Shown one piece after another: positions 8,802 to 49,986 of a stretch of 64,000 nt of DNA (positions are counted from its first letter, which is position 1; every line of letters starts with the position of its first letter). Origin of the DNA: an uncultured Chlamydiae bacterium (lineage in GTDB: Bacteria > Chlamydiota > Chlamydiia > Chlamydiales > JAJFMB01). Location of the stretch: NCBI GenBank assembly GCA_963696295.1, contig CAVOJR010000001.1, positions 2,304,001-2,368,000 of the forward strand, given 5' to 3'. Made by a program: the position numbers and the translations under genes. The notes under the pieces are model-generated. The model did not search any database. It was not told the origin of the DNA and was given only the letters and a program-made list of their open reading frames with translations.

Positions 8802-9345
8802 CTTTTGCTGTCCCAAATAGCCGGTGAGTTTCTTTTGTCAGCCACAAATTAAATTAGCTTTTGCTGCTCTTTAAATCGCCGGGGAGTTTCTTTTAGATGG
8901 TGTCAGCCACAGAATTTAATTAGCTTTTGCTGCCCTTTAAATGTCGGGGAGTTTCTTTTAGATGTTGTCAGCCACAAATTAAATTAGCTTTTGCTGCTCT
9001 TTAAATCGCCGGGGAGTTTCTTTTAGATGTTGTCAGCCACAAATTAAATTAGCTTTTGCTGCTTTTTCCTAGATAGGCCACAGAATTTAATTAGCTTTTG
9101 CTGCTCTTTAAATCGCCGGGGAGTTTCTTTTAGATGGTGTCAGCCACAAATTAAATTAGTTTTTGCTGCTTTTTCCTAGATAGGCCACAGAATTTAATTA
9201 GCTTTTGCTGCTCTTTAAATCGCAGGGGAGTTTCTTTTAGATGGTGTCAGCCACAAATTAAATTAGTTTTTGCTGCTTTTTCCTAGATAGGCCACAGAAT
9301 TTAATTAGCTTTTGCTGCTCTTTCCCAAATAGCCAGGGAGTTTTT
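8802..9345. repeat. Tandem array of 65-66 bp and 41 bp units homologous to the 3' end of the neighbouring minus-strand gene
   Basis: Units start with GCCAC at 8841, 8906, 8971, 9036, 9077, 9143, 9184, 9250 and 9291; shared core AATTAG(C/T)TTTTGCTGC; last unit overlaps the gene's stop codon. Confidence 0.95.
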
Positions 9346-10899
9346 GCAAACGTCGTTGTGCTGAGCATTGATGGTAATCAGAATTTTATAAAAGGCTTCC
9401 GCCTCCTTTAGATACCCGAAATTCACGAGGCAATTCAGGATGCGCGTGATACGCAAGAAGTTGTGATTAGATGGGGTCAGCCATACGGCGCTTCTTTCTT
9501 TGAAATTCGCTGCGAGGATAACGGTTTGCGACTGTTCATCAAAATGTAACCCGTAGAAGCTCAACATCTTGTAAAATGATGTTTTGATGTTGGCTCTTAT
9601 TTCGGGGTCTTGATTCATTTCTTTAAGACTTTCTTGAGAGAGAATGGGGGCTTTTGAGTTGTATTTAGAGGGAATTTTATTGGGAAAAAGCCACTGGATA
9701 TAGTTGTGGCACGATTCTTTTGCATTATCATCTAAATCCCACAAATCTTTCAAGTACCGCCCTTCGGCGTCTGGGCCGGTTCCGCGGTAAAAGGGGACCA
9801 GAAGGTTGTTTTTCCCCGTTTTTGCCTCTAGAGCCTGAAAAATTTCATAATTTTTTTTGCCATTAGAGTCATTGAGAACGGAAAGGACCACTTTAATATT
9901 TTGACGGAATTCGGCGTGAATTTCAGCCATGCACTCGATCATGAGGTCTTGGGGATTTCTAAAAGCGCCGCACCCGAAGGGAACTAAGACCAGCGTATCA
10001 AGCCCATTTGCGATAGCGGCAGAAAAGATGGATCGAAGTTTAGCCTTGGTTATTTCTTTATAGGCGCCGACCGTATCTGAAGACCAGTTTTGTGGTACAT
10101 ATTTCCCAGTCGATCTATCCAAGGCAACTGGGTACTTATCTTGTAGGGAATTTAGATCCAACGCCGCTGAAGCGATAATCGGGAGGGGGAACGGGGTGTC
10201 GAGAAAGGGATAGCCCTCATTTGCGGAGCCTCTGAAGATGACGATATCTTTGATAAATAGCGCTTCATTGGTTTGAATGAAAGATCCTTGCTGATCAAGG
10301 AGATTTTTTGCCCTTACCAGGGCGGGATAGAGGTTGCTTCTGCGGCAAATTTGCTCTTCCTGGGCCCGTGCGCCGAAAGGGGAGCCGCCAGGGTGATGTT
10401 CATTTGCGGCATCCAAAAGAGCGACTTTACGCCCCTCGTCAATGAGGCTTTTGCTGATGTCAATACAGTCCCCATTCCTCACTTCAATTGAATGGTTTGT
10501 GGCTGGATTTAATGGAGTTGAGACCGCGGGTTCAGCGGTTCCTGATGTTAAGTTAATTTTTCGGCTGGTTACAGTGTTATTTTTAGAGGCATAAATAGAA
10601 ATTTCTTCAGCTTTTTTTATGGGAACTTGTACCTGATTCTTTACATAATACCCAGTGTTGACGATCTTTTCTGTTTGCGTCATTACCTCAGCGAGATTTA
10701 GCTGGGGTGGATTAATTTGGGGGCTTTTCATCATCCGGTCAAAAATAGCGACGATCGCGCCAATGACAGGGAGGCATTCGATCGCAGCCAAAGCGAGATG
10801 CGCGACTGCCCGGCCATTCCATTCGGTTGATTTTTTGAATTGTTCGTAATTATGATAGGCGCAATCCCAGCCTGTAATAAGGGAAATTATATTTTTCAT
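9301..10899 (-). CDS. Microbial PARG-type macrodomain (TIGR02452/DUF2263-like) fused to an OGFr conserved domain; candidate effector
   Basis: DAANEHHPGG..GARAQEEQICRRSNLY and GCGAFRNP (PARG); HNYIQWLFP...MLSFYGL...HNFLRITRILNCL (OGFr); N-terminal hydrophobic segment. Confidence 0.85.
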   Translation of the reverse strand: MKNIISLITGWDCAYHNYEQFKKSTEWNGRAVAHLALAAIECLPVIGAIVAIFDRMMKSPQINPPQLNLAEVMTQTEKIVNTGYYVKNQVQVPIKKAEEISIYASKNNTVTSRKINLTSGTAEPAVSTPLNPATNHSIEVRNGDCIDISKSLIDEGRKVALLDAANEHHPGGSPFGARAQEEQICRRSNLYPALVRAKNLLDQQGSFIQTNEALFIKDIVIFRGSANEGYPFLDTPFPLPIIASAALDLNSLQDKYPVALDRSTGKYVPQNWSSDTVGAYKEITKAKLRSIFSAAIANGLDTLVLVPFGCGAFRNPQDLMIECMAEIHAEFRQNIKVVLSVLNDSNGKKNYEIFQALEAKTGKNNLLVPFYRGTGPDAEGRYLKDLWDLDDNAKESCHNYIQWLFPNKIPSKYNSKAPILSQESLKEMNQDPEIRANIKTSFYKMLSFYGLHFDEQSQTVILAANFKERSAVWLTPSNHNFLRITRILNCLVNFGYLKEAEAFYKILITINAQHNDVCKNSLAIWERAAKAN

Positions 10900-11059
10900 A
10901 ATAAAAACAGTATATCTAAATTAAGGCATAATATTCAAGAGAAAAGCATTAGGCGGGATTGGCTGGTCGATTGACCATTACGACTATTAATCTTAACACT
11001 TTGTTAATTTATACTTTAAATTACACTGCTATAATTTGATAAAAAGTATAGGAGCATAT

Positions 11060-12022
11060 GTGAGCAGTGTGCATGAGAGCGAGTACAAACTCCCCCACGA
11101 CGGAAAGTTAAAATGGGGTATCGATGTCGCAGCTACTTTGGGTTTATGTACTTACGACGTAAAAATCGCTCGCGACCAAATAAAGAACTACGGGGGGATG
11201 TTAGCTGAGAAGTCTTTGGATTCTAAAGCCCTCTCTTCAGTAGTCGGCGCCAAACTCTCCAGCAACTTTTTGTGGGGAGGCATCGCGGGGAACCTGTTGG
11301 AACCAGCTCAAGCGCTCACCAGAAAAGTCCTTGGCAAAGACGCCTCTAATGCCGCAGTGGCTACCGGGGGAGGAATGCTCTCCTCGGCGGCGGCAACCGC
11401 ATTGCTAAGGCCCCTCTCCGTCATTACGCTAAACAGCCAAACCCAATCAACTTCTATCCTTCAATCGGCAAAAGAACTCGCCGGGGGAAATCCGCTGCAC
11501 TTGATCAAAGAGTCTTTCGGTTCTTTAGCCGTGGCATCTCAAGTTACGGGAAGCACTATTTTTGGAGCCACATTTTGGGGCGCGTCAAGCTACTTATATG
11601 ATCAGTCTATGAAAATCATGAAATCATCAAATACGGGACTTTCAGAAGAAAATCAAAAAATCATATGCGGAACAGGCTCTGTAGTTGGAGGCGGCACGGG
11701 AGCAATGATTCTCTCCACCCCATTCTCTCTCTATGCCAGAGAAAAGGCTTACGACACAGCCCGCATAGCAGCAGAAAAAGAGCCAAAAGAACTTGCAGCC
11801 AAAATCATGAAACCCTTGGAAATTAGAATAGCAGAGGCATTCAAAGGAAATTTTAAGCGCTTCATCATCCCGATGACAGCTTATGGATTGGCAGCCTCCT
11901 ATTTTGGGGCAGTTCAAAACGATGAAAAACCTCCTGCCAAGAAAACTGAATTAGCAGAGTACGTTGATTATGAAAACACAGTATTAGAGCAAAATGGGGA
12001 AATTATCTTTGATGCCAGTTGA
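11060..12022 (+). CDS. Membrane protein with three degenerate mitochondrial-carrier (SLC25)-like repeats
   Basis: GTG start after AGGAG; three Gly/Ala-rich hairpins about 90-100 aa apart with TYDVKIARDQ, RPLSVITLNSQ and TPFSLYAREK motifs. Confidence 0.5.
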   Translation: MSSVHESEYKLPHDGKLKWGIDVAATLGLCTYDVKIARDQIKNYGGMLAEKSLDSKALSSVVGAKLSSNFLWGGIAGNLLEPAQALTRKVLGKDASNAAVATGGGMLSSAAATALLRPLSVITLNSQTQSTSILQSAKELAGGNPLHLIKESFGSLAVASQVTGSTIFGATFWGASSYLYDQSMKIMKSSNTGLSEENQKIICGTGSVVGGGTGAMILSTPFSLYAREKAYDTARIAAEKEPKELAAKIMKPLEIRIAEAFKGNFKRFIIPMTAYGLAASYFGAVQNDEKPPAKKTELAEYVDYENTVLEQNGEIIFDAS

Positions 12023-12024
12023 CC

Positions 12025-12456
12025 TTACTGATTGACCTCAAAAATTCGATAAACCACCCAATAGGGGGGATTCAGGGGATCGGGGGTCCAAGCGGTCACG
12101 AGCTTCCCATCATAATAAAGAAAATCATTTCTGTGATAATATTTGCAGTTAAATTGAAATGTGCAGCAACCCTGATCAAAGTAACTTTTGCAAGGGTTTT
12201 TCTTGTAATTTTGAGGAAGCGGTTCGGGCACCAAGCCGTTGAAACTATGAGCAAATCCACACGAATCCCTTTCACACATATTTCTCAACCACAAAGCACA
12301 AATGACTTTATTTTGTGCTACTGACTGAGAGGAGGATCCGCCTTGAGGTTTTAACCTTTCAACCAAAGGTTGATCCCCCATTAAACGCAAAGGAGAGGTG
12401 TAATAATTAGAACAATCTGGATGTGGAATAACATAAAATATGTTTTGAATAGACAT
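12025..12456 (-). CDS. Tandem CCCH zinc-finger protein (tristetraprolin/TIS11-like)
   Basis: C-x7-C-x4-C-x3-H, 18-aa linker ending YKKNP, then C-x8-C-x5-C-x3-H. Confidence 0.85.
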   Translation of the reverse strand: MSIQNIFYVIPHPDCSNYYTSPLRLMGDQPLVERLKPQGGSSSQSVAQNKVICALWLRNMCERDSCGFAHSFNGLVPEPLPQNYKKNPCKSYFDQGCCTFQFNCKYYHRNDFLYYDGKLVTAWTPDPLNPPYWVVYRIFEVNQ

Positions 12457-12539: not shown

Positions 12540-12603
12540 TATACCCAAACAACCTCCAAATTTGGTTTTTGGCAAAGCCAAATTTTGAGGTTGTTTGGGT
12601 ATA
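12540..12603. repeat. Palindromic MITE/REP-like element (short form)
   Basis: TATACCCAAACAACCTC...GAGGTTGTTTGGGTATA inverted repeat; same termini as the element at 52602. Confidence 0.8.
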
Positions 12604-12890
12604 TATGGACTGTACTAACCCGTTAATTTGGATTATACCGGCCTTGTCACAAACCCTCTGGATATATTAAGCAGAACTGGCCGATTGAAATTCCCGATTT
12701 TGATCCGCCCTATAATTTTTCTGATAAAGAGATCTGCCAATTGAGATGGATTAAGAGATACATACGATCCTCCCCACTGGTGTGACTCACCATTTAAGAG
12801 AAAATGACCACTGCCAGCAGTGGAATAGATGGCTATTTTAATGGTTGTATGATATAATTAGTCGAAATTTTTAATTTGCTTAGTAAGATT

Positions 12891-13959
12891 ATGGATGTTA
12901 GATCTTTTATTGACCAATATACACTCCCTTTACAATATTTTATTCTAGATAAGCCGAATCTTCCAACGATAAATCGGGTGAATGAGTTTAGTCAGGAATG
13001 GTTGACTCAACAAATGAGAGCGTTAAATTCCGATAAGCAACTGGCTTTAGAAAAAGAATTCTTTGAAATGTTCGGTAAACAGCCCGAACAAACCAGGAGC
13101 CCTGGCTGGAGCATATGCGCCGAGGGATGGCGCAATCTCAAAAAAAAATCGGCATGGCTATTTCCCCTACGATGAGAATATCTATGCTCCCCGCCTTTCC
13201 CCCGATATGGCGCCCTACTATCATAATGCGAGTAAAATTTCACTAAGCGATTATCAATGGGTAGCAGCACAGGGCCCCATGGCAAACACCATCGACGATT
13301 TCTGGCATGCCGTGATAGCTGGAGGATCTAATAAAATTGTCACTCTTGCCATGCCTACGGAGAATCAATACGAAAAATGTTTGAATTATTGGCAAACGGG
13401 AAGCCGCACTATTTGGCACAATGAGGAGCGTTTAGGGGAAATTCATCTCATTTTTGAAGAGCAGCTTGACAAAGTAGATCATGATAACGAGTATACGATC
13501 AGAATGGATGGGGATGACCAGGATACAATCAGGCGGCAATTCAAATGGGTGCCGGTGAAGGGGAAGGGAGAAATCAAAGACATTGAACAATTCCACTTCC
13601 GAAATTGGGTCGATATGAAAGTTCCTAAGACTGAGCTCATCAATAAGTTCCAAGACCGGATCGATGCGACACCCACAACCGGACCTAAAATAGTTCATTG
13701 CAGCGCAGGCGCTGGCCGGACAGGGGCTTTTATCGTTTTAGACTTCTATAAACATGTCATCGATGATGAGTTGCAAAAGTTGAAGAGCGGGCAAAATATC
13801 CGCAACATCCAGATGAACATAAGTATCGTCGATACCGTATTAAAAATTCGCAAGCAGCGCCAAGCTATGGTCAAAACAGATTATCAGTTGCGTATCATCC
13901 AGGATGCTTTGATCGCGAGGTATCATCCTCTTTATGAGAAAGCGGATGATGATGAATAA
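12891..13959 (+). CDS. Classical protein tyrosine phosphatase; frameshifted at an A9 run (13140-13148)
   Basis: KNRH.FPYD, AAQGP, FWHAV, WVD loop, VHCSAGAGRTG, QAMVKTDYQ; removing one A joins ORFs 12876-13175 and 13063-13959. Confidence 0.88.
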
Positions 13960-14009: not shown

Positions 14010-15872
14010 ATGGCATCACTAGAGCCGCTCCGAATTTTTTCTAAGGAGGAGTGGAAAACTCTCTACCCTGACACCGATTCCCAAGCCCAAAGGGGCAAAA
14101 CGTACCCCTTCCACTTTATGACCGCCCGCAATCCCAAGGAAGAGATTCTCATCGAAAGGATCAGGAAAGCAACAGACGCATTGATCGCAGCCGATGACGA
14201 AGATCACCACAAATTGACCCCGCTCATCATCGCCGTGATGAAAGGAAATACGAGGATTGTCGAAGAGCTGCTCTTAAAAGAGATTGTGCGCGCACATATT
14301 AATGATACGGACGCCTATGGATGGACACCCCTGCATCACGCAGCCCTCACCTCAGATGAAATCTTCCAAAAACTCAGGGCTTGCGGGGCAAATCCAAACT
14401 GCCGCACGATTTTGAATGCCTCTACAGACGACCTCAAAGCCCTCGTTGCCTGGGGTATCAAAGCGCGTTCACTAGAACATGTCTCCTTTGAGGAAAAGCC
14501 ATTGGAGGAGGAAACGGCAAAAACTCAATTCAAAATGACGTCATACCGGGATCTCCCCTACTTTCCCCCCGAACAACTGCAACATCTTTGGCAACAAAAG
14601 AAGTTCCAAGAAGAACCTTTAGCAAACTACGTTATCATCCGTTTTAAGCACCATGCCCCTAAGCTCGTCATCTCCGCCATCGATAAGGAAAGAGGGTTTT
14701 ATGGACTCTCAGCCGGTGAAGAGCTACCCATCGGAACCGTCATCGGCGAGTATGGGGGAGCTTTCAGGGAACAGACAACAGGTTTCGGAACCTTTTCTTC
14801 CGAAGAGGCCAAAAAACACGCATATCTCTTCAAAGGCTTTGATGCGAAAGAGGTGGGAAATGCCACCCGCTTTATGAATTGCGGCTTTTCCAATGTGGCC
14901 CCCCTTCCAAAGGTAGAAAATGGTGTGGTAAAGGTTTTCTTTGTCGCCCATCAACCCATCCAAAAAGGGGAGCCGATCCTCTATAACTATGGGGGCAAAG
15001 CCTATGATGTCACTTTCGGCCCCCAAACCCTCTTCAATCGGGATAAAATGCACGCTTTTTTTAAAAAAGGATTGGAAGCCATCAGAAAAGAGAACGAGCT
15101 AGTCGACGAACAAATACTCAGCAGCAAAACGATGGATCAGGCTGTCGATCTCTATCTAAAGAGGGCTAATTTGCGCGACCATGCGGTATTTCCTCTAGAT
15201 AACCCCCTCGCTTTAATCGACCTTCACATCTCAGGTACCGTTCCTGCGAAAGCGTGGTTAAAGGCTCTCGTCAATTTAGATCATCTTTCTATTCAAGAAT
15301 GGGTAAAACAGCAAGGGTTAATGGCCTATGCGCGCGCGTGGCAATTCACCCTGTACTTGTCCAAAATCGATCGCAATATCCAGACAAATGCCAAGGAGCA
15401 CTATCCCCTCTTCCAAAAGTGGGTTCAAGACCGTTGCCAAACAGCCAAAATCATGGACCTGTTAAAGGGGATGGAATTGATTGAGGAAGCGCTGGTAGTA
15501 CAAAAAAATCCAAAGATGCTCGAAGAAGTCGATGAGCGACTTAAACATTACGATTGGAAGCAGGACCCCTCCAGCCTCTTTAGCTATGAAAGCCGGCGAA
15601 GGGCTTTGGAACAATACCTTGATTTTACCCTATTTAGAGGCCTGGATACCCAGACTTTGCTGCACTTCCCGACCAAAAGAAATGCCTTCATCGAAATCCT
15701 GGAAACAGAAGCGATAAAGGAGACAAGGGGGCTAAAATCGGGTTTCAAGGGATCGGAAATGGAACAAATCTTCAAAGAGATCAAAGAAAGCACTCCAAAA
15801 GCCTCAAATTTAATATCGTATTTAACCAAAATAGGTGAAGAGTTCAAAGAAATGGGAAATTTCATAAAATAG
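14010..15872 (+). CDS. Ankyrin repeat plus SET domain protein (putative lysine methyltransferase effector)
   Basis: TPLIIAV and GWTPLHHAA ankyrin motifs; GEYGG...GNATRFMNC...IQKGEPILYNYG SET motifs. Confidence 0.88.
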   Translation: MASLEPLRIFSKEEWKTLYPDTDSQAQRGKTYPFHFMTARNPKEEILIERIRKATDALIAADDEDHHKLTPLIIAVMKGNTRIVEELLLKEIVRAHINDTDAYGWTPLHHAALTSDEIFQKLRACGANPNCRTILNASTDDLKALVAWGIKARSLEHVSFEEKPLEEETAKTQFKMTSYRDLPYFPPEQLQHLWQQKKFQEEPLANYVIIRFKHHAPKLVISAIDKERGFYGLSAGEELPIGTVIGEYGGAFREQTTGFGTFSSEEAKKHAYLFKGFDAKEVGNATRFMNCGFSNVAPLPKVENGVVKVFFVAHQPIQKGEPILYNYGGKAYDVTFGPQTLFNRDKMHAFFKKGLEAIRKENELVDEQILSSKTMDQAVDLYLKRANLRDHAVFPLDNPLALIDLHISGTVPAKAWLKALVNLDHLSIQEWVKQQGLMAYARAWQFTLYLSKIDRNIQTNAKEHYPLFQKWVQDRCQTAKIMDLLKGMELIEEALVVQKNPKMLEEVDERLKHYDWKQDPSSLFSYESRRRALEQYLDFTLFRGLDTQTLLHFPTKRNAFIEILETEAIKETRGLKSGFKGSEMEQIFKEIKESTPKASNLISYLTKIGEEFKEMGNFIK

Positions 15873-45318: not shown

Positions 45319-48300
45319 TCACAGAATGATAGGCGTTCTATTTCTTGCTTGTTGCAAGGCTTTCACCATTTCTTTGGGTTCTTGGGCTAAGAGATAAAAA
45401 TGATCCGCATAGCTGTTCCTCACCCCTATCTCCCTGTCTCCGGTAGCTCTGAGGTACTCTTCTGAGCGTCTCCAAAGCGTTAGTATAAACTGCTCCTCGG
45501 CTGCAAAGCCGGGGTTAACCGACCAATTCGACTTGTCAATCGTGGCAGTTCCAAAAAGTTCTTCCACGGTAGAAGCCTTAATTCTGTTGCTGTCAAAGCT
45601 GATGACACGCTTGAGATCGAGGTCATGAGCGGCATGAAAGACTTTCCTTAAAAAATAGAGATCCCGGTTGATCAGAGGATCAATTGTTCCTTCGCTTGCG
45701 GTTGACCATAAGATGGCTTCTCCATACACCTTGGCTTCCGCAGCATCCTTGAAAAGCCTGCCAGGACCTGTGTGGATTCGCACATCTTGCGCAAAGTTCA
45801 CGGCATCAATCCTTTCGTAAGAATTATATTTGGCTTCGTCGATGCTCCTGTCAACTTCTGATTCCCGGCCTGTCCGTTGATAAGCCGAGGCCATCTCCAC
45901 TTTTAGCAGAAAGTTTGGGTCGGTTGCCATTTTTGCCTTTACCCATGGCACGATCTCCAGACCGTCGTCACTTTTAAAAGGGATAGTGCTCTTTTTGGCT
46001 AACTGGTTCAATGCGTCGATGATATCGACTGCCAAAAAACCCTGTCTTAAGCCATGCGCCAGAGGGTGATTGGGGCGTTGGACTGTATACAATTTGCCTG
46101 CAATCGATGTCTGAACATAGTTCGAGGGAGTGTCTTTGTAGGGTCGGCAGAAATATTTGTTCACCATTTCTGCAATGTGTGCGCTGCTGACGGGTGCGGC
46201 TATTGATGAGCTTCCTGAAGAACGCGCTTTGGCAAAAGCTTTGGAACCATCTTCGGTGAAATACAGGAACATCCCATTAACCGATGGGAAGGCCGGATCG
46301 CCGGGCGGAACTTCCATGAAGTAACGCACGCCGCGCGCTCTTAGTGATTTTAAAGTGACTAATGGCATTTTATTCTCTTTGATATTATCCAGGACTTTTT
46401 CTTTTAAAGCCTCTGGCATAATCACTTCTTGCAAGGAATCAAATTTCATCTCCTTGCTGCCGGACTCTTTTGTGAGCTTTAGCTCATGAATGCCGATGAG
46501 ATTGCCGCCTTTATCGTAATAGGCGTAACCCCCAACCTGATATAAGTTTTTAAGCTGTGGATCATCGGTACCTAGCGCAAGGTTTTCAGCCGGATATAAG
46601 AACTGCGCGGTTTCAGCGTTTTCCGGGGCGCCAGTAATAACGGATGCGGAATACTTCTTGGTGGAGGACATTTCCGCAAGCTTCGCATTTTTATAATCAG
46701 CCACCAAATTCAAGTAGAGGCATTCGTAAAACTGATCTTTAATCGATTCGATGTGAACCGCGGTATCAAATTGCTCATCCACAGGCTGGCGGTAGAAACG
46801 CTCCCGCTGGGCCGCGGTCATGCCTCGATTACATTCACTGCAGCACACTTGGCGATACTTCTGATCTCTGGTCTTCCAAACGACGTTTGAGGGAGCGGGT
46901 TTGGCCCCTGCGGTCTTTTCCCGGCAGCCTCCAACAATGCAGTTCGCCTGGACTAAAGCCTGCACTTTTTCTGGTTTGCCGCCCCTAAGTATCGTCACAT
47001 TACCGATTGATCCTTCCGATGTGTCAACTTCATCCATACCGATAGCCAGGAAGCAGTCTTGATCAGAGTCCTTAAGCCGGTCATTCGCAGTATCCTTAAA
47101 TTTATACATAAAGAAACCGTGCGGCGCCCTTGTCGCATAAAAATCTGCAAACTGTTTGGCTAAAGCTTTATCACCCTTGCTAATTTTATCCTGCGCAGCT
47201 GCAGGGATATACCCGGGAGGCACCCAGTCAAAGTGGGTGGAATCATAGCTGAGCAACTCAGGTGATGTGACTTGTGTGCTATTTCCATCCTTCGGACAGT
47301 TGGGCTGCGTAGTGATGCATTTGACGCTTTCATTAAATTCTCTTCTTATTGGCTCCGGGATAAAGTCCTTGCTTCTCTGCGCTCTTTTTACGGGTAAAAC
47401 GTCTTGTGTCAATTGCCCAACAAGGGCTTTGGTTTGGATTAATTCATTTTTTCCATTGAAGTAAGCATACCCGCCAATATACATCAACGCGGCAAAATCG
47501 GCGCCATACTGCTCTGTCAATGTGGCAATGATATCCCCAATGTACTGCTTTTTCTTAGCTTCTATTTGTTCTTGCGTTGCTTTTAAACCCGCACTTTCCA
47601 GCTCTCTTTTTGCCTCATATGCCAGGTATTCCCCAAGAGCGTCGATCGGTTTGACAAAGTAAAAGTACTTGGCATCTTTATGGATTTTGAATAGGTTTCG
47701 ATCGCTCTCGCTAAGATTTACCTCACCTCTTTTGGACAGGAGCGCGCTAAAAGTAAGCTCGAGCCCTATTTCTTCTCTTACAGTCCCCGACTTTGTCCAT
47801 CGGTTTATCCATCTCCCTTTCATCGTTTTCTTTCTATGAATTTCTCTCACAGCTCCACTAGGATCGTAATCAAATTGTTTAATAGTGCCCTCTAAGGGGA
47901 CTGGCATGTCACCCGATAAACCAAAGGGAGTTTCTTCATCAACCTTGATCCGTTTTAAATCCGATGGCTGTAAAGTGACAGCGCAAAAAGGCATTGGGAC
48001 CTTATCAAAGAAGCCAGGAGTTGGAGGTCCGAGCAAGATGTTGGCGCGCAGGTCTGTAACCTTGGCTTGCCTATTCATCTTATCGATATTCTCAAAGTAA
48101 GCATTCGGGTTAAACTCATCTACGTTATTCGCTTCTAATGATTTAGCCTTTTCCCGTTTTGAGGGGGGAGTGATGTCCTTGAAAGATTTTCGGATCCTCA
48201 CAGGGCTTGACGAGGGCCCTTTTGCCTTGTATCCTGCAGCATCAAGATGTTTCCTAAAAGTCGCTTTGATTTCATGCCGTTTTTCTTTCCCGATTGTCGT

Positions 48301-49986
48301 GATAGTGATGATCCTTTCCTTTTTAGGCTCAAAATTGTCTAAAAGGGCCCGGTACTGTGTATTTCCTTCTTTGCATTTCGCAGTGAGGGTATCCTTTTGC
48401 AACCCCTCTAAAACGCCTCTTTCCCCAATACTCGTCATGGAAGGACAGTCGCACATCCTCCCATAAGGGTGCGCTCGGTATAAAGAAGCGTTGGATCCCT
48501 CTGTGGCTCTATCTTTGGGAATCATCATCACATGAAGCGTGCCCACAAAGGCCGCGCTTTGAATTTCCGTGGTATATTTATTGACGGCATCCATGAGTTG
48601 CGTTTCCAGTGTGTAATTACCTGGAAAAGCTTCTCGAATATTGTTTCTGGCGGCGTCAACATAGGCAGCATAGACACTGCGGGAATTTGAAAGAAAGTGC
48701 AGAGTTGACTCCCAAGGATTGATATTCTTGATAAATTCAATATCGCAGGAGGCTAGGGCTCTGCGCGTTTCTGGGTCATGATCATGGGTTGTTGTCCGCT
48801 TATATCTGTCATTTGGCACCTTATCTTTCCTGGGGATCCTCAGGAATTTGTAGTTATGTGTCTCTTTAGCGGGATATTTATGCCTGACTATCTCCTTGTT
48901 GAGATAGTTAACTACTGCCCAAGGGGTATCTTGAGCCGATACCAGAACAAAAAATTTATCTCCAAAGAACTTCCTGATTTCTAAAGCTCGCCCAATGGCA
49001 GCTTTCACATACTCTTGATTGCGGCTGTTGACAGCATATTCCGCTTTGTGCTTTTCAAGCGCGTACACACTTTGAGAAAAGACGTCGTTAATTTCCGTAG
49101 TGAGAATGCCAAACTCTTGCAATCGTTGAATTTCTTCACCGGGATCATCATCTATGTAGTTCTCTTTTAGTCTATCGAGCAGCTCATCCCACTTTTCTTC
49201 TTTTTTTAGCTTTTCCAATTCCCGAATTTCCTTTTCTATGCTGGAGAGCGGCGGTGCTGCCGTGCTGGAAGAGGAGCTCGAGCTGGAAGAAGAGCTTGAG
49301 CTGGAAGGCGCTTTTGTCGCGGTGGTGATTGTCGTGGTGATCACCGGCGGCGGTGGGGCTTTGATTATCCCTGGTGTGGTCGCGGTCGCGGTTGTGGTTG
49401 TGGTCGTCACTGGTGTGGTTGTCACCGCAGGTCGGGTCGCGGTTGTGGTTGTCACCGCAGGTGGGAACGGGGCTTTGATTATCCCTGGTGTGGTCGCGGT
49501 TGTGGTCGTCACCGCAGCTCCTCGGAGCGGGTGTGTGGTTGTCACCAATGGGGATTTTCCCTTAAGGTCTTTGACGAATTTGACTATGCGATCACTAATT
49601 TCTGAGATTTTTTTCGGCTCGTATTTATAGATTTCGATTTTTTTGTATCCAAAGCAGGTAAAAAACAGATTGTGAATTGCGATAAACAATGCCGCAAGTC
49701 CGGATGGGGGCTTGCTTCTCCCTGTTTTTGTATGGAATTCGTCAACAAAATGAATCACATTGTCCAATTGATCTTTCGTTAATTTTTTGCAGTTTTCTAC
49801 AATTTCTGCTTCAGATAGCGCTATTAACTTGGCATAAGTTTTATAAAGGTCTGAGTTCTGCCCCAGTTTAAAACCGGGCTTTACTTTCTCCTTAAGGGCA
49901 ATGCTCGACCCGCTTAGATAGACCTCGCTTTTAGAAAGGTCGCACTTTTTAGACCAAATAGAGGCATCAAAAATATTTGTAATCAT
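45319..49986 (-). CDS. 1555-aa multidomain candidate effector with C-terminal SidE/Dup-type phosphodiesterase domain
   Basis: RPNHPLAH, TGRESE, AAHDLDLKR; Thr/Pro/Ser linker; internal duplicated module; Cys cluster. Confidence 0.8.
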   Translation of the reverse strand: MITNIFDASIWSKKCDLSKSEVYLSGSSIALKEKVKPGFKLGQNSDLYKTYAKLIALSEAEIVENCKKLTKDQLDNVIHFVDEFHTKTGRSKPPSGLAALFIAIHNLFFTCFGYKKIEIYKYEPKKISEISDRIVKFVKDLKGKSPLVTTTHPLRGAAVTTTTATTPGIIKAPFPPAVTTTTATRPAVTTTPVTTTTTTATATTPGIIKAPPPPVITTTITTATKAPSSSSSSSSSSSSSSTAAPPLSSIEKEIRELEKLKKEEKWDELLDRLKENYIDDDPGEEIQRLQEFGILTTEINDVFSQSVYALEKHKAEYAVNSRNQEYVKAAIGRALEIRKFFGDKFFVLVSAQDTPWAVVNYLNKEIVRHKYPAKETHNYKFLRIPRKDKVPNDRYKRTTTHDHDPETRRALASCDIEFIKNINPWESTLHFLSNSRSVYAAYVDAARNNIREAFPGNYTLETQLMDAVNKYTTEIQSAAFVGTLHVMMIPKDRATEGSNASLYRAHPYGRMCDCPSMTSIGERGVLEGLQKDTLTAKCKEGNTQYRALLDNFEPKKERIITITTIGKEKRHEIKATFRKHLDAAGYKAKGPSSSPVRIRKSFKDITPPSKREKAKSLEANNVDEFNPNAYFENIDKMNRQAKVTDLRANILLGPPTPGFFDKVPMPFCAVTLQPSDLKRIKVDEETPFGLSGDMPVPLEGTIKQFDYDPSGAVREIHRKKTMKGRWINRWTKSGTVREEIGLELTFSALLSKRGEVNLSESDRNLFKIHKDAKYFYFVKPIDALGEYLAYEAKRELESAGLKATQEQIEAKKKQYIGDIIATLTEQYGADFAALMYIGGYAYFNGKNELIQTKALVGQLTQDVLPVKRAQRSKDFIPEPIRREFNESVKCITTQPNCPKDGNSTQVTSPELLSYDSTHFDWVPPGYIPAAAQDKISKGDKALAKQFADFYATRAPHGFFMYKFKDTANDRLKDSDQDCFLAIGMDEVDTSEGSIGNVTILRGGKPEKVQALVQANCIVGGCREKTAGAKPAPSNVVWKTRDQKYRQVCCSECNRGMTAAQRERFYRQPVDEQFDTAVHIESIKDQFYECLYLNLVADYKNAKLAEMSSTKKYSASVITGAPENAETAQFLYPAENLALGTDDPQLKNLYQVGGYAYYDKGGNLIGIHELKLTKESGSKEMKFDSLQEVIMPEALKEKVLDNIKENKMPLVTLKSLRARGVRYFMEVPPGDPAFPSVNGMFLYFTEDGSKAFAKARSSGSSSIAAPVSSAHIAEMVNKYFCRPYKDTPSNYVQTSIAGKLYTVQRPNHPLAHGLRQGFLAVDIIDALNQLAKKSTIPFKSDDGLEIVPWVKAKMATDPNFLLKVEMASAYQRTGRESEVDRSIDEAKYNSYERIDAVNFAQDVRIHTGPGRLFKDAAEAKVYGEAILWSTASEGTIDPLINRDLYFLRKVFHAAHDLDLKRVISFDSNRIKASTVEELFGTATIDKSNWSVNPGFAAEEQFILTLWRRSEEYLRATGDREIGVRNSYADHFYLLAQEPKEMVKALQQARNRTPIIL
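49245..49550 (-). repeat. Intragenic low-complexity Thr/Pro/Ser repeats
   Basis: GGGGCTTTGATTATCCCTGGTGTGGTCGCGGT twice, repeated GTGGTTGTCACC, poly-Ser. Confidence 0.85.

Follow-up and report, generated by a model that had tools for sequence, protein, structure and literature searches.

A chlamydial family of proteins with a TTP-like tandem CCCH zinc finger and an added C-terminal sheet

The genome of an uncultured chlamydial bacterium encodes a family of small proteins built on a tandem CCCH zinc finger. The family is related to the TTP/TIS11 module, the RNA-binding module with which eukaryotes control the lifetime of mRNAs, and is extended by a tail of its own. Our best reading, to which we give a probability of about 45%, is that these proteins are exported effectors that would bind RNA with an altered specificity, either occupying host RNA or recruiting a partner through the tail. 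The window, that is, the whole stretch of 64,000 nucleotides that was analysed, covers positions 2304001-2368000 of contig C1 (3,298,190 nt) of genome G000, which is 97.4% complete and 1.5% contaminated.

The gene and its signals

The gene under study, whose product we call P0001, comes with three sequence signals:

12025..12456, minus strand: tandem CCCH zinc-finger gene (P0001), open from ATG to TAA, 143 aa
12461..12464, minus strand: GAGG, Shine-Dalgarno-like by its letters only, 4 nt 5' of the ATG
12540..12603, no strand: 30-bp inverted repeat 5' of the gene
12412..12426, minus strand: N-terminal PHPDC motif, residues 11-15, invariant across the three closest sequences

The start codon agrees with that of two relatives that are 54-57% identical to P0001: the protein search matches them over 97% of its length, and they begin and end at the same points. 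The inverted repeat was considered as a gene-specific element and ruled out, being dispersed through the genome. In the structural model, the PHPDC region has a pLDDT below 55. A 101-aa open reading frame on the plus strand overlaps the gene and has no Pfam match.

Read in six frames, the contig contains the tandem CCCH pattern six times, and these are the six paralogs described below; each of five codon-shuffled copies of the contig contains it 0 times. These controls, and the count of spacer residues 71-88, uphold the original prediction of a pair of CCCH fingers with 18 residues between them; its canonical second finger with a YKKNPC lead-in is also found, as C89-x8-C98-x5-C104-x3-H108 after NYKKNP. 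The prediction passed over the departures of finger 1 from the canonical form, the expansion of the family and the C-terminal sheet. Compared with the Pfam zf-CCCH profile (PF00642), P0001 gives no match at E 0.1 and stays below the curated cut-off, and 3 of the 23 family rows match at E 0.05. Lying below this cut-off, the family is missed by routine annotation, and further members may hide in annotated genomes.

Relationship to TTP and TIS11

The definition passages of two papers characterize TTP/TIS11 by two CCCH fingers 18 residues apart (PMC13406598, PMC9698766), and a passage of a third by an (R/K)YKTEL lead-in before each finger (PMC12710939). When profile A2 of the family is compared with PDB chains, both fingers align with 9y10 (E 2.3e-14), TTP 1m9o (1.2e-12), TIS11d 1rgo (1.4e-11) and POS-1 6nzl (3.9e-9); the best CPSF30 chain is at 6.8e-4. 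P0001 alone gives weak and about equal matches to Yth1/CPSF30 and TTP chains, the best being Yth1, with E 0.0016. Aligned by hhalign with canonical sequences selected among the 143 matches of the protein search described below, the family scores 99.3%.

The AlphaFold model of P0001 has a pLDDT of 90-95 over residues 51-140. Two fold searches place TIS11d at the top: Foldseek, with E 6.6e-3, and VIA, with Z 4.6 and rmsd 3.8 over 68 aligned residues, the next match being at Z 2.5. These are weak matches on the scales of the tools: Foldseek gives no E as low as 0.001, and Z stays below 5. Profile and, with these weak scores, fold are nearest to TTP-family structures, as in a TTP-like tandem zinc finger fold. 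The family fails four defining features of TTP, namely the spacing of finger 1, the lead-ins, one aromatic and the NOT1 motif; we therefore do not place it in TTP/TIS11, although it is like a TTP-type tandem finger. Of the TTP/TIS11 identity first proposed for this gene, descent is thus retained and canonical membership is given up.

Phylogeny had been suggested as a check. The profiles support TTP-type descent; the donor cannot be named from a tree that has no root and is built on 69 columns and 64 rows, in which the label “eukaryote-like” is inferred from architecture. Because one long row intrudes, 2 changes are needed for the 20 tailed rows in this tree. When four long chlamydial rows are removed, a single branch (SH-aLRT 84, unstarred) separates the 23 family rows from all others, whereas the remaining 5 chlamydial domains are scattered among the eukaryote-like rows and require 4 changes. 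The support that the tree lends is weak.

The fingers and their RNA-contacting residues

12247..12318, minus strand: finger 1 with its lead-in AQNKVI, C53-x7-C61-x4-C66-x3-H70
12193..12246, minus strand: spacer, residues 71-88, 18 aa, ending in the NYKKNP lead-in
12133..12192, minus strand: finger 2, with aromatics F100 and Y106 kept

The spacer is 18 residues long and free of gaps in all 23 family rows, and K85 is invariant in the same rows. P0001 has an extra cysteine, C97, next to C98, which is the invariant one in 10 of 10 close relatives. Finger 1 departs from C-x8-C-x5-C-x3-H: its spacing is x7-x4 in P0001 and in 17 of the 20 tailed rows; the other 3 have x5-x4. The form x8-x5 is kept, among the 23 family rows, only in the three copies of a second genome, G001. 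Spacing and lead-in of this finger are non-canonical in every one of the 20 tailed rows. Neither lead-in of P0001 reads (R/K)YKTEL, finger 1 having AQNKVI and finger 2 retaining YK alone.

Positions of TIS11d were mapped through the family-profile alignment and counted over 20 family rows; we take its stacking aromatics to be Y170, F176, Y208 and F214. In finger 2, the equivalent of Y192 is Y or F and that of K193 is K in 20/20 rows, that of Y208 is Y or F in 20/20, and that of F214 is F or Y in 18/20. In finger 1, the equivalent of F176 is F or Y in 19/20 rows (F68 in P0001), and at Y170 we find R in 15/20 (R63 in P0001). P0001 keeps three of the four stacking aromatics, F68, F100 and Y106, where TIS11d has two per finger, according to passages of PMC1635273. 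The equivalents of Y154, E157 and R160 are gone from finger 1, that of R184 from the spacer, and that of G209 as well. The domain of P0001 carries a net charge of +4, and the family, with a median of +3, is less basic than the eukaryote-like set, with +6.

Passages of the same paper state that TIS11d recognizes RNA through its protein backbone (PMC1635273). Specificity is consequently not predictable from the changes in sequence, and the shortened finger 1 probably shifts the binding site. For ZFP36L2, passages of PMC12710939 report that Y154H, R160W, R184C and G204D cut binding to less than 10%, with less than 1% left for Y154H, 3.1% for R184C and 7.6% for R160W; at three of these four non-cysteine positions P0001 also departs from the TTP residue, though not to the residue of the variant.

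The C-terminal sheet and tail

12034..12132, minus strand: family-specific C-terminal sheet, three modelled strands at residues 112-116, 119-125 and 133-140

The sheet, at residues 112-140, recurs in a separate model. In fold searches, a model of the tail with finger 2 gives only generic matches to small sheets, with a best Z of 3.2 and Foldseek E above 1; from these the fold can be called neither known nor new. A tail-only profile of 20 rows matches those rows and three held-out copies of G001, with E 0.004-0.005; it gives no match in the other CCCH proteins found with profile A2, in eukaryote-like proteins or in P0107. The last had appeared, by eye, to be a eukaryotic protein with the same tail, and was rejected on this result. 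An atlas search returned eukaryotic CCCH clusters at 0.90 or less, and nothing for the tail.

Among the three closest sequences, the tail, rather than the fingers, is the most conserved stretch, and its WxPDPLNPPYWVVYR segment is invariant. This conservation favours another account, in which the fingers would now be chiefly a scaffold and an exported effector would bind a host protein by a loop of its tail, or DNA or poly-ADP-ribose by its module, RNA binding being lost or secondary. The positions vacated in finger 1 and in the spacer point the same way, since ZFP36L2 variants at lost positions keep less than 1% to 7.6% of binding (passages of PMC12710939), as does the rebuilding of finger 2, instead of finger 1, in the copies of G001. 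However, the finger 2 aromatics, the lead-in lysine and the 18-residue spacer are kept in 20 of 20 rows at an identity of about 25-35%, and R63 could stand in for the missing tyrosine in stacking. We consider this account unlikely, and continue to prefer an effector that binds RNA.

The definition passages of PMC9698766 and PMC13406598 include a C-terminal CNOT1-binding motif of the TTP family. P0001 ends in YWVVYRIFEVNQ, a modelled strand in which the R-L-P-I-F context of that motif is absent, as judged by eye and without a motif model. Its I-F pair (YRIFE) lies within strand 133-140, and most family members have G for F. The R-L-P context is present in eukaryote-like matches such as P0077 (KRLPIFEEIT).

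The original prediction held that the protein could compete for host mRNAs with AU-rich elements (ARE) or destabilise them. A full mimic of TTP would bind UUAUUUAUU, recruit the host CCR4-NOT complex and destroy ARE mRNAs; the spacer and finger 2 are canonical, the I-F pair is there, and Legionella PieF shows that bacteria do target CCR4-NOT (abstract of bioRxiv 10.1101/2022.06.06.494580). But the aberrant finger 1 of all 20 tailed rows, the changes at three of four ZFP36L2 positions and an I-F pair that sits in a strand outside any R-L-P context argue against destabilisation, and we regard such a mimic as quite improbable.

Paralogs and distribution

In G000 the family has six copies, all intact and free of introns, which lie among bacterial genes at four loci on the one 3.3-Mb contig. 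Besides the gene of the window, these are:

L009:6807-8441: three overlapping tandem genes
L010:6975-7901: one paralog
L011:6331-6756: one paralog

The GC3 of the paralogs is 0.35-0.48, versus a long-ORF median of 0.58. G001, of the same taxonomic family, has three tandem copies (L012:121-1810, plus strand), with a canonical finger 1 that includes ELR and a short finger 2, C-x3/5-H-x4-C-x3-H, in which a histidine appears to take the place of the second cysteine. It is natural to conjecture that the forms of G000 and G001 diverged in two ways from a TTP-like tailed ancestor. A profile search found no copy in G002, a 94% complete genome of the same family, and the tailed family is present in two of the GTDB genomes searched, G000 and G001.

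Wider searches add relatives from elsewhere. The search of 1.84 billion protein representatives gives 143 matches; their motif table, taken with the search that found the 54-57% identical relatives, yields 14 proteins of the same layout from other, taxon-unlabelled assemblies, with longest contigs of 687 to 61,253 nt. P0011, P0029 and P0038 are each on a contig of 23,774 nt and pair in the tree with the three array genes; from the shared size and the pairing, the three-gene array is probably present elsewhere. Profile A2, of 23 rows, matches 9 of 400 genomes of the phylum, G000 included (one further genome is unscored), and family by family 2/73, 0/29, 9/103 and 1/129 genomes. Outside G000 and G001, the matched genomes have, by the tail profile, different CCCH proteins; a match in G019 was dropped as a family member, as it contains stops. 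Pattern scans, which require near-exact words, found no relatives in JGI metagenomes (0/106 and 0/204), in GTDB contigs scanned with the three closest sequences (0/113), in viral contigs (0/11, 0/23 and 0/8) or in plasmids, and word-index protein searches found few additional ones.

These observations bear on whether the gene belongs to the bacterium at all, since eukaryotic DNA may have been joined into the assembly, or a transferred gene may be decaying. No independent contig bridging the P0001 gene was found. Five DNA runs contain small shares of the region; among four of them none covers the gene, exact pieces of 151-180 nt lying at 11081-11424 and 12781-12936, and no RNA data are listed for the region. 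The assembly has indel errors, and CCCH genes in other metagenome-assembled genomes (MAGs) can be contaminants: two such matches, L030 and L055, look like eukaryotic contamination or chimeras, so that CCCH counts in MAGs need checks of the flanks. Yet an artefact or a relic would hardly yield six intact copies at four loci between bacterial genes, full-length relatives in independent assemblies and three proteins that match the array, in a genome with the completeness and contamination given above. This alternative is already largely refuted and, in our estimation, very improbable; the bacterial location first claimed stands, and the doubt then raised about a chimeric contig has largely lost its ground.

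Secretion genes and lifestyle

G000 has four TLC nucleotide translocases, a SctN above the cut-off, one SctR/FliP match and a cluster read as sctU-sctV-copN-chaperone-malQ, where the names beyond sctV are presumed from chlamydial gene order. These genes point to a host-dependent lifestyle. Chlamydia proteins of type DUF818 are present, and a search of G000 for a VirB4-type ATPase of type IV secretion found none. We assign the genome to Chlamydiota; other genomes of its order match records that bear this label.

The sctV gene lies in three frames (C1:256120-258152), and rpoB (C1:2144979-2148732) and secA (C1:1260443-1263109) are likewise each in several frames, which suggests assembly indels. 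Comparison of 29 test proteins of other genomes with G000 shows 0 frame changes in 20,274 nt: the indel errors are thus patchy, and the broken frames of sctV likely stem from them. An N-terminal composition score puts five of the six paralogs no lower than the 95th percentile; CopN, its positive control, comes out at the 52nd, so the score is unvalidated and carries little weight.

The neighbourhood and the proposed role

The gene for P0001 sits in an accessory stretch after rplQ, with these neighbours:

9301..10899, minus strand: microbial PARG catalytic domain and OGFr_N, by Pfam domain search
11036-12022, plus strand: 328-aa hydrophobic open reading frame, convergent with the P0001 gene, the stops 2 nt apart
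12876..13959, plus strand: protein-tyrosine phosphatase (PTP) gene in two frames, with a break near an A run at about 13140
14010..15872, plus strand: ankyrin and SET domain protein, by Pfam domain search

The hydrophobic frame has no significant Pfam or NCBIfam match. Between rplQ and the PARG gene, a tandem repeat with periods of 65 and 107 bp occupies 8847-9323 of the window and is unique in the genome. Elsewhere in the window are a gene for 1,555 aa that include a SidE-type phosphodiesterase domain (45319-49986, minus strand, E 2.7e-21) and one for a macrodomain protein (32777-33592, plus strand), which with the PARG-OGFr_N gene makes two ADP-ribose-related genes. Near the other copies, an OTU protease gene adjoins the three-gene array, and a further gene follows a paralog:

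L011:5632-6318, minus strand: Bles03-like gene, PF08939 E 3.9e-5, just above the cut-off

This gene starts 12 nt after the zinc-finger paralog and is present in single copy in the genome. The Bles03 fold is eIF4E-like.

A small, basic and compact protein with no proven signal could also be a domesticated regulator that binds the AU-rich mRNAs of the bacterium itself, and the paralog at L009:8091-8441, which is almost devoid of the N-terminal extension, would suit such a role. However, the patchy spread, with two GTDB genomes and an absence in G002, does not favour it, and the gain of paralogs, the tandem arrays, the low GC3 and the effector-like neighbours fit accessory genes for host interaction. 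An internal regulator is rather unlikely.

In passages of PMC4209131, expanded eukaryote-like families of Parachlamydiaceae bore functional type III signals. From this precedent, the lifestyle, the neighbours and the conservation of the RNA face of finger 2, we infer export, binding and target for the effector that we prefer. A chlamydial ancestor would have taken a TTP/TIS11-type gene from a eukaryote or its virus; a small C-terminal sheet would have been gained, and the gene then duplicated. The products would reach the host cell by type III export and bind zinc and, putatively, single-stranded RNA, finger 2 reading a U-rich half-site much as TIS11d does; the sheet and the rebuilt finger 1 might alter the remainder of that site or contact a host protein. 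With no NOT1 motif, the protein may occupy its target RNA and so compete with the ARE-binding proteins of the host, or act through a partner recruited by the tail, and the paralogs may cover different targets. The effector role of the original prediction is thus plausible, given the type III genes and the eukaryote-like neighbours (PARG, PTP, SET, ankyrin).

Other bacterial CCCH proteins

Four other chlamydial genomes have a near-canonical TTP-type domain without the tail:

L016:1402-2001, minus strand: genome G275
L015:1486-1992, minus strand: genome G249
L044:979-1791, plus strand: genome G462
L014:1441-1899, minus strand: genome G176

The domains of G275, G249 and G462 have YKTELC or YKTEPC lead-ins, x8-x5 spacing in both fingers and 18 residues between them. 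All four genes lie between bacterial ones. The L016 protein, whose gene adjoins two SET genes, has a C-terminal PLPIFKELI, which we take to resemble the NOT1-binding motif. These four proteins are better candidates for true TTP mimicry.

When GTDB was scanned with a canonical alignment, 52 pattern matches led to 6 loci. Three are labelled chlamydial and one, which has bacterial flanks, Endozoicomonadaceae; of the other two, one is a likely chimera and one has a single finger. The Endozoicomonadaceae record is the following:

L053:2791-4242, plus strand: fully canonical tandem zinc finger (YKTELC, 18, YKTKLC) on a 36.8-kb contig

Its fingers come after a hydrophobic N-terminal segment, and the gene adjoins a type I methylase gene. 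PF00642 itself matches 9/400 genomes of the order, G000 not among them, and 0/14 controls.

Taken with the near-canonical chlamydial domains, this record suggests that bacteria captured the TTP module repeatedly. A broader conjecture, that host-associated bacteria did so and use the module in injected, sequence-reading mRNA-binding effectors whose paralogs acquire new specificities, is doubtful though not far-fetched; if true, this class would be the RNA counterpart of the DNA-binding TAL effectors.

Two further groups of chlamydial proteins were seen. Divergent tandem CCCH proteins with longer spacers occur at L017, L019, L020, L021, L046, L047 and L057; a short hairpin is predicted after their finger 2, and the tail profile does not match those at the first six of these loci. 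Proteins of more than 1,000 aa at L029, L034 and L038 combine what looks by eye like a superfamily 1 helicase with a C-terminal CCCH finger of YKT type.

Comparison with known systems

Among the top-ranked papers of our literature searches, none is on bacterial TTP-like proteins, though specialist reviews of TTP phylogeny could hold a prior mention. A search for CCCH and Chlamydiae led to PMC4029402, unrelated in the part available; one small supplement of PMC9816063 has no match, and its gene-gain tables and other supplements may list such domains. According to passages of a 2017 survey of 1,022 effectors, no host-RNA-binding effectors were known, and CCCH is absent from its main text (PMC5570926). 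A small bacterial protein with a version of the best-studied mRNA-decay module of eukaryotes brings the question of host RNA within reach of standard gel-shift and reporter assays. Its natural variants, in which one genus has a rebuilt finger 1, another a rebuilt finger 2, and a sheet is added, also probe the specificity of TTP-type fingers.

With TTP/TIS11/ZFP36 the family shares two CCCH fingers, the 18-residue spacer, a canonical finger 2, the YK of its lead-in and aromatics; it differs by the x7-x4 finger 1, the loss of YKTEL, Y170, R184, G209 and the NOT1 motif, the added sheet and its bacterial host. CPSF30/Yth1 proteins are arrays of short-spaced CCCH fingers with zinc knuckles. Finger 1 alone is similar to theirs (C-x-x-W-L-R-x-x-C), but P0001 has two fingers, neither its finger 2 nor its 18-residue spacer agrees with such proteins, and the profile score is about ten orders worse than for TTP-type chains.

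Other parasites also encode CCCH or TTP-like proteins, such as scale drop disease virus (ORF_096L), lymphocystis disease virus 4, marseilleviruses and Tetraselmis virus 1, and viral CCCH matches top the viral fold library, with E 5.7e-4 to 0.26. However, no viral contig that encodes the tailed family was found (0/11 pattern matches), and in the 7 of 11 viral loci inspected the tailed layout is absent.

The F-box and BTB families of Parachlamydiaceae, as passages of PMC4209131 describe them, are alike in combining a eukaryotic domain, lineage-specific duplication and tandem arrays in a host-dependent bacterium with type III secretion genes; they differ in having ubiquitination targets and dozens of copies, where we find six copies and a putative target in RNA biology. 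Legionella PieF, in the abstract of the preprint cited above, is alike in being a bacterial effector that affects the stability of host mRNAs, but it binds the CNOT7/8 enzyme, whereas P0001 has an RNA-reading module and no known contact with CCR4-NOT.
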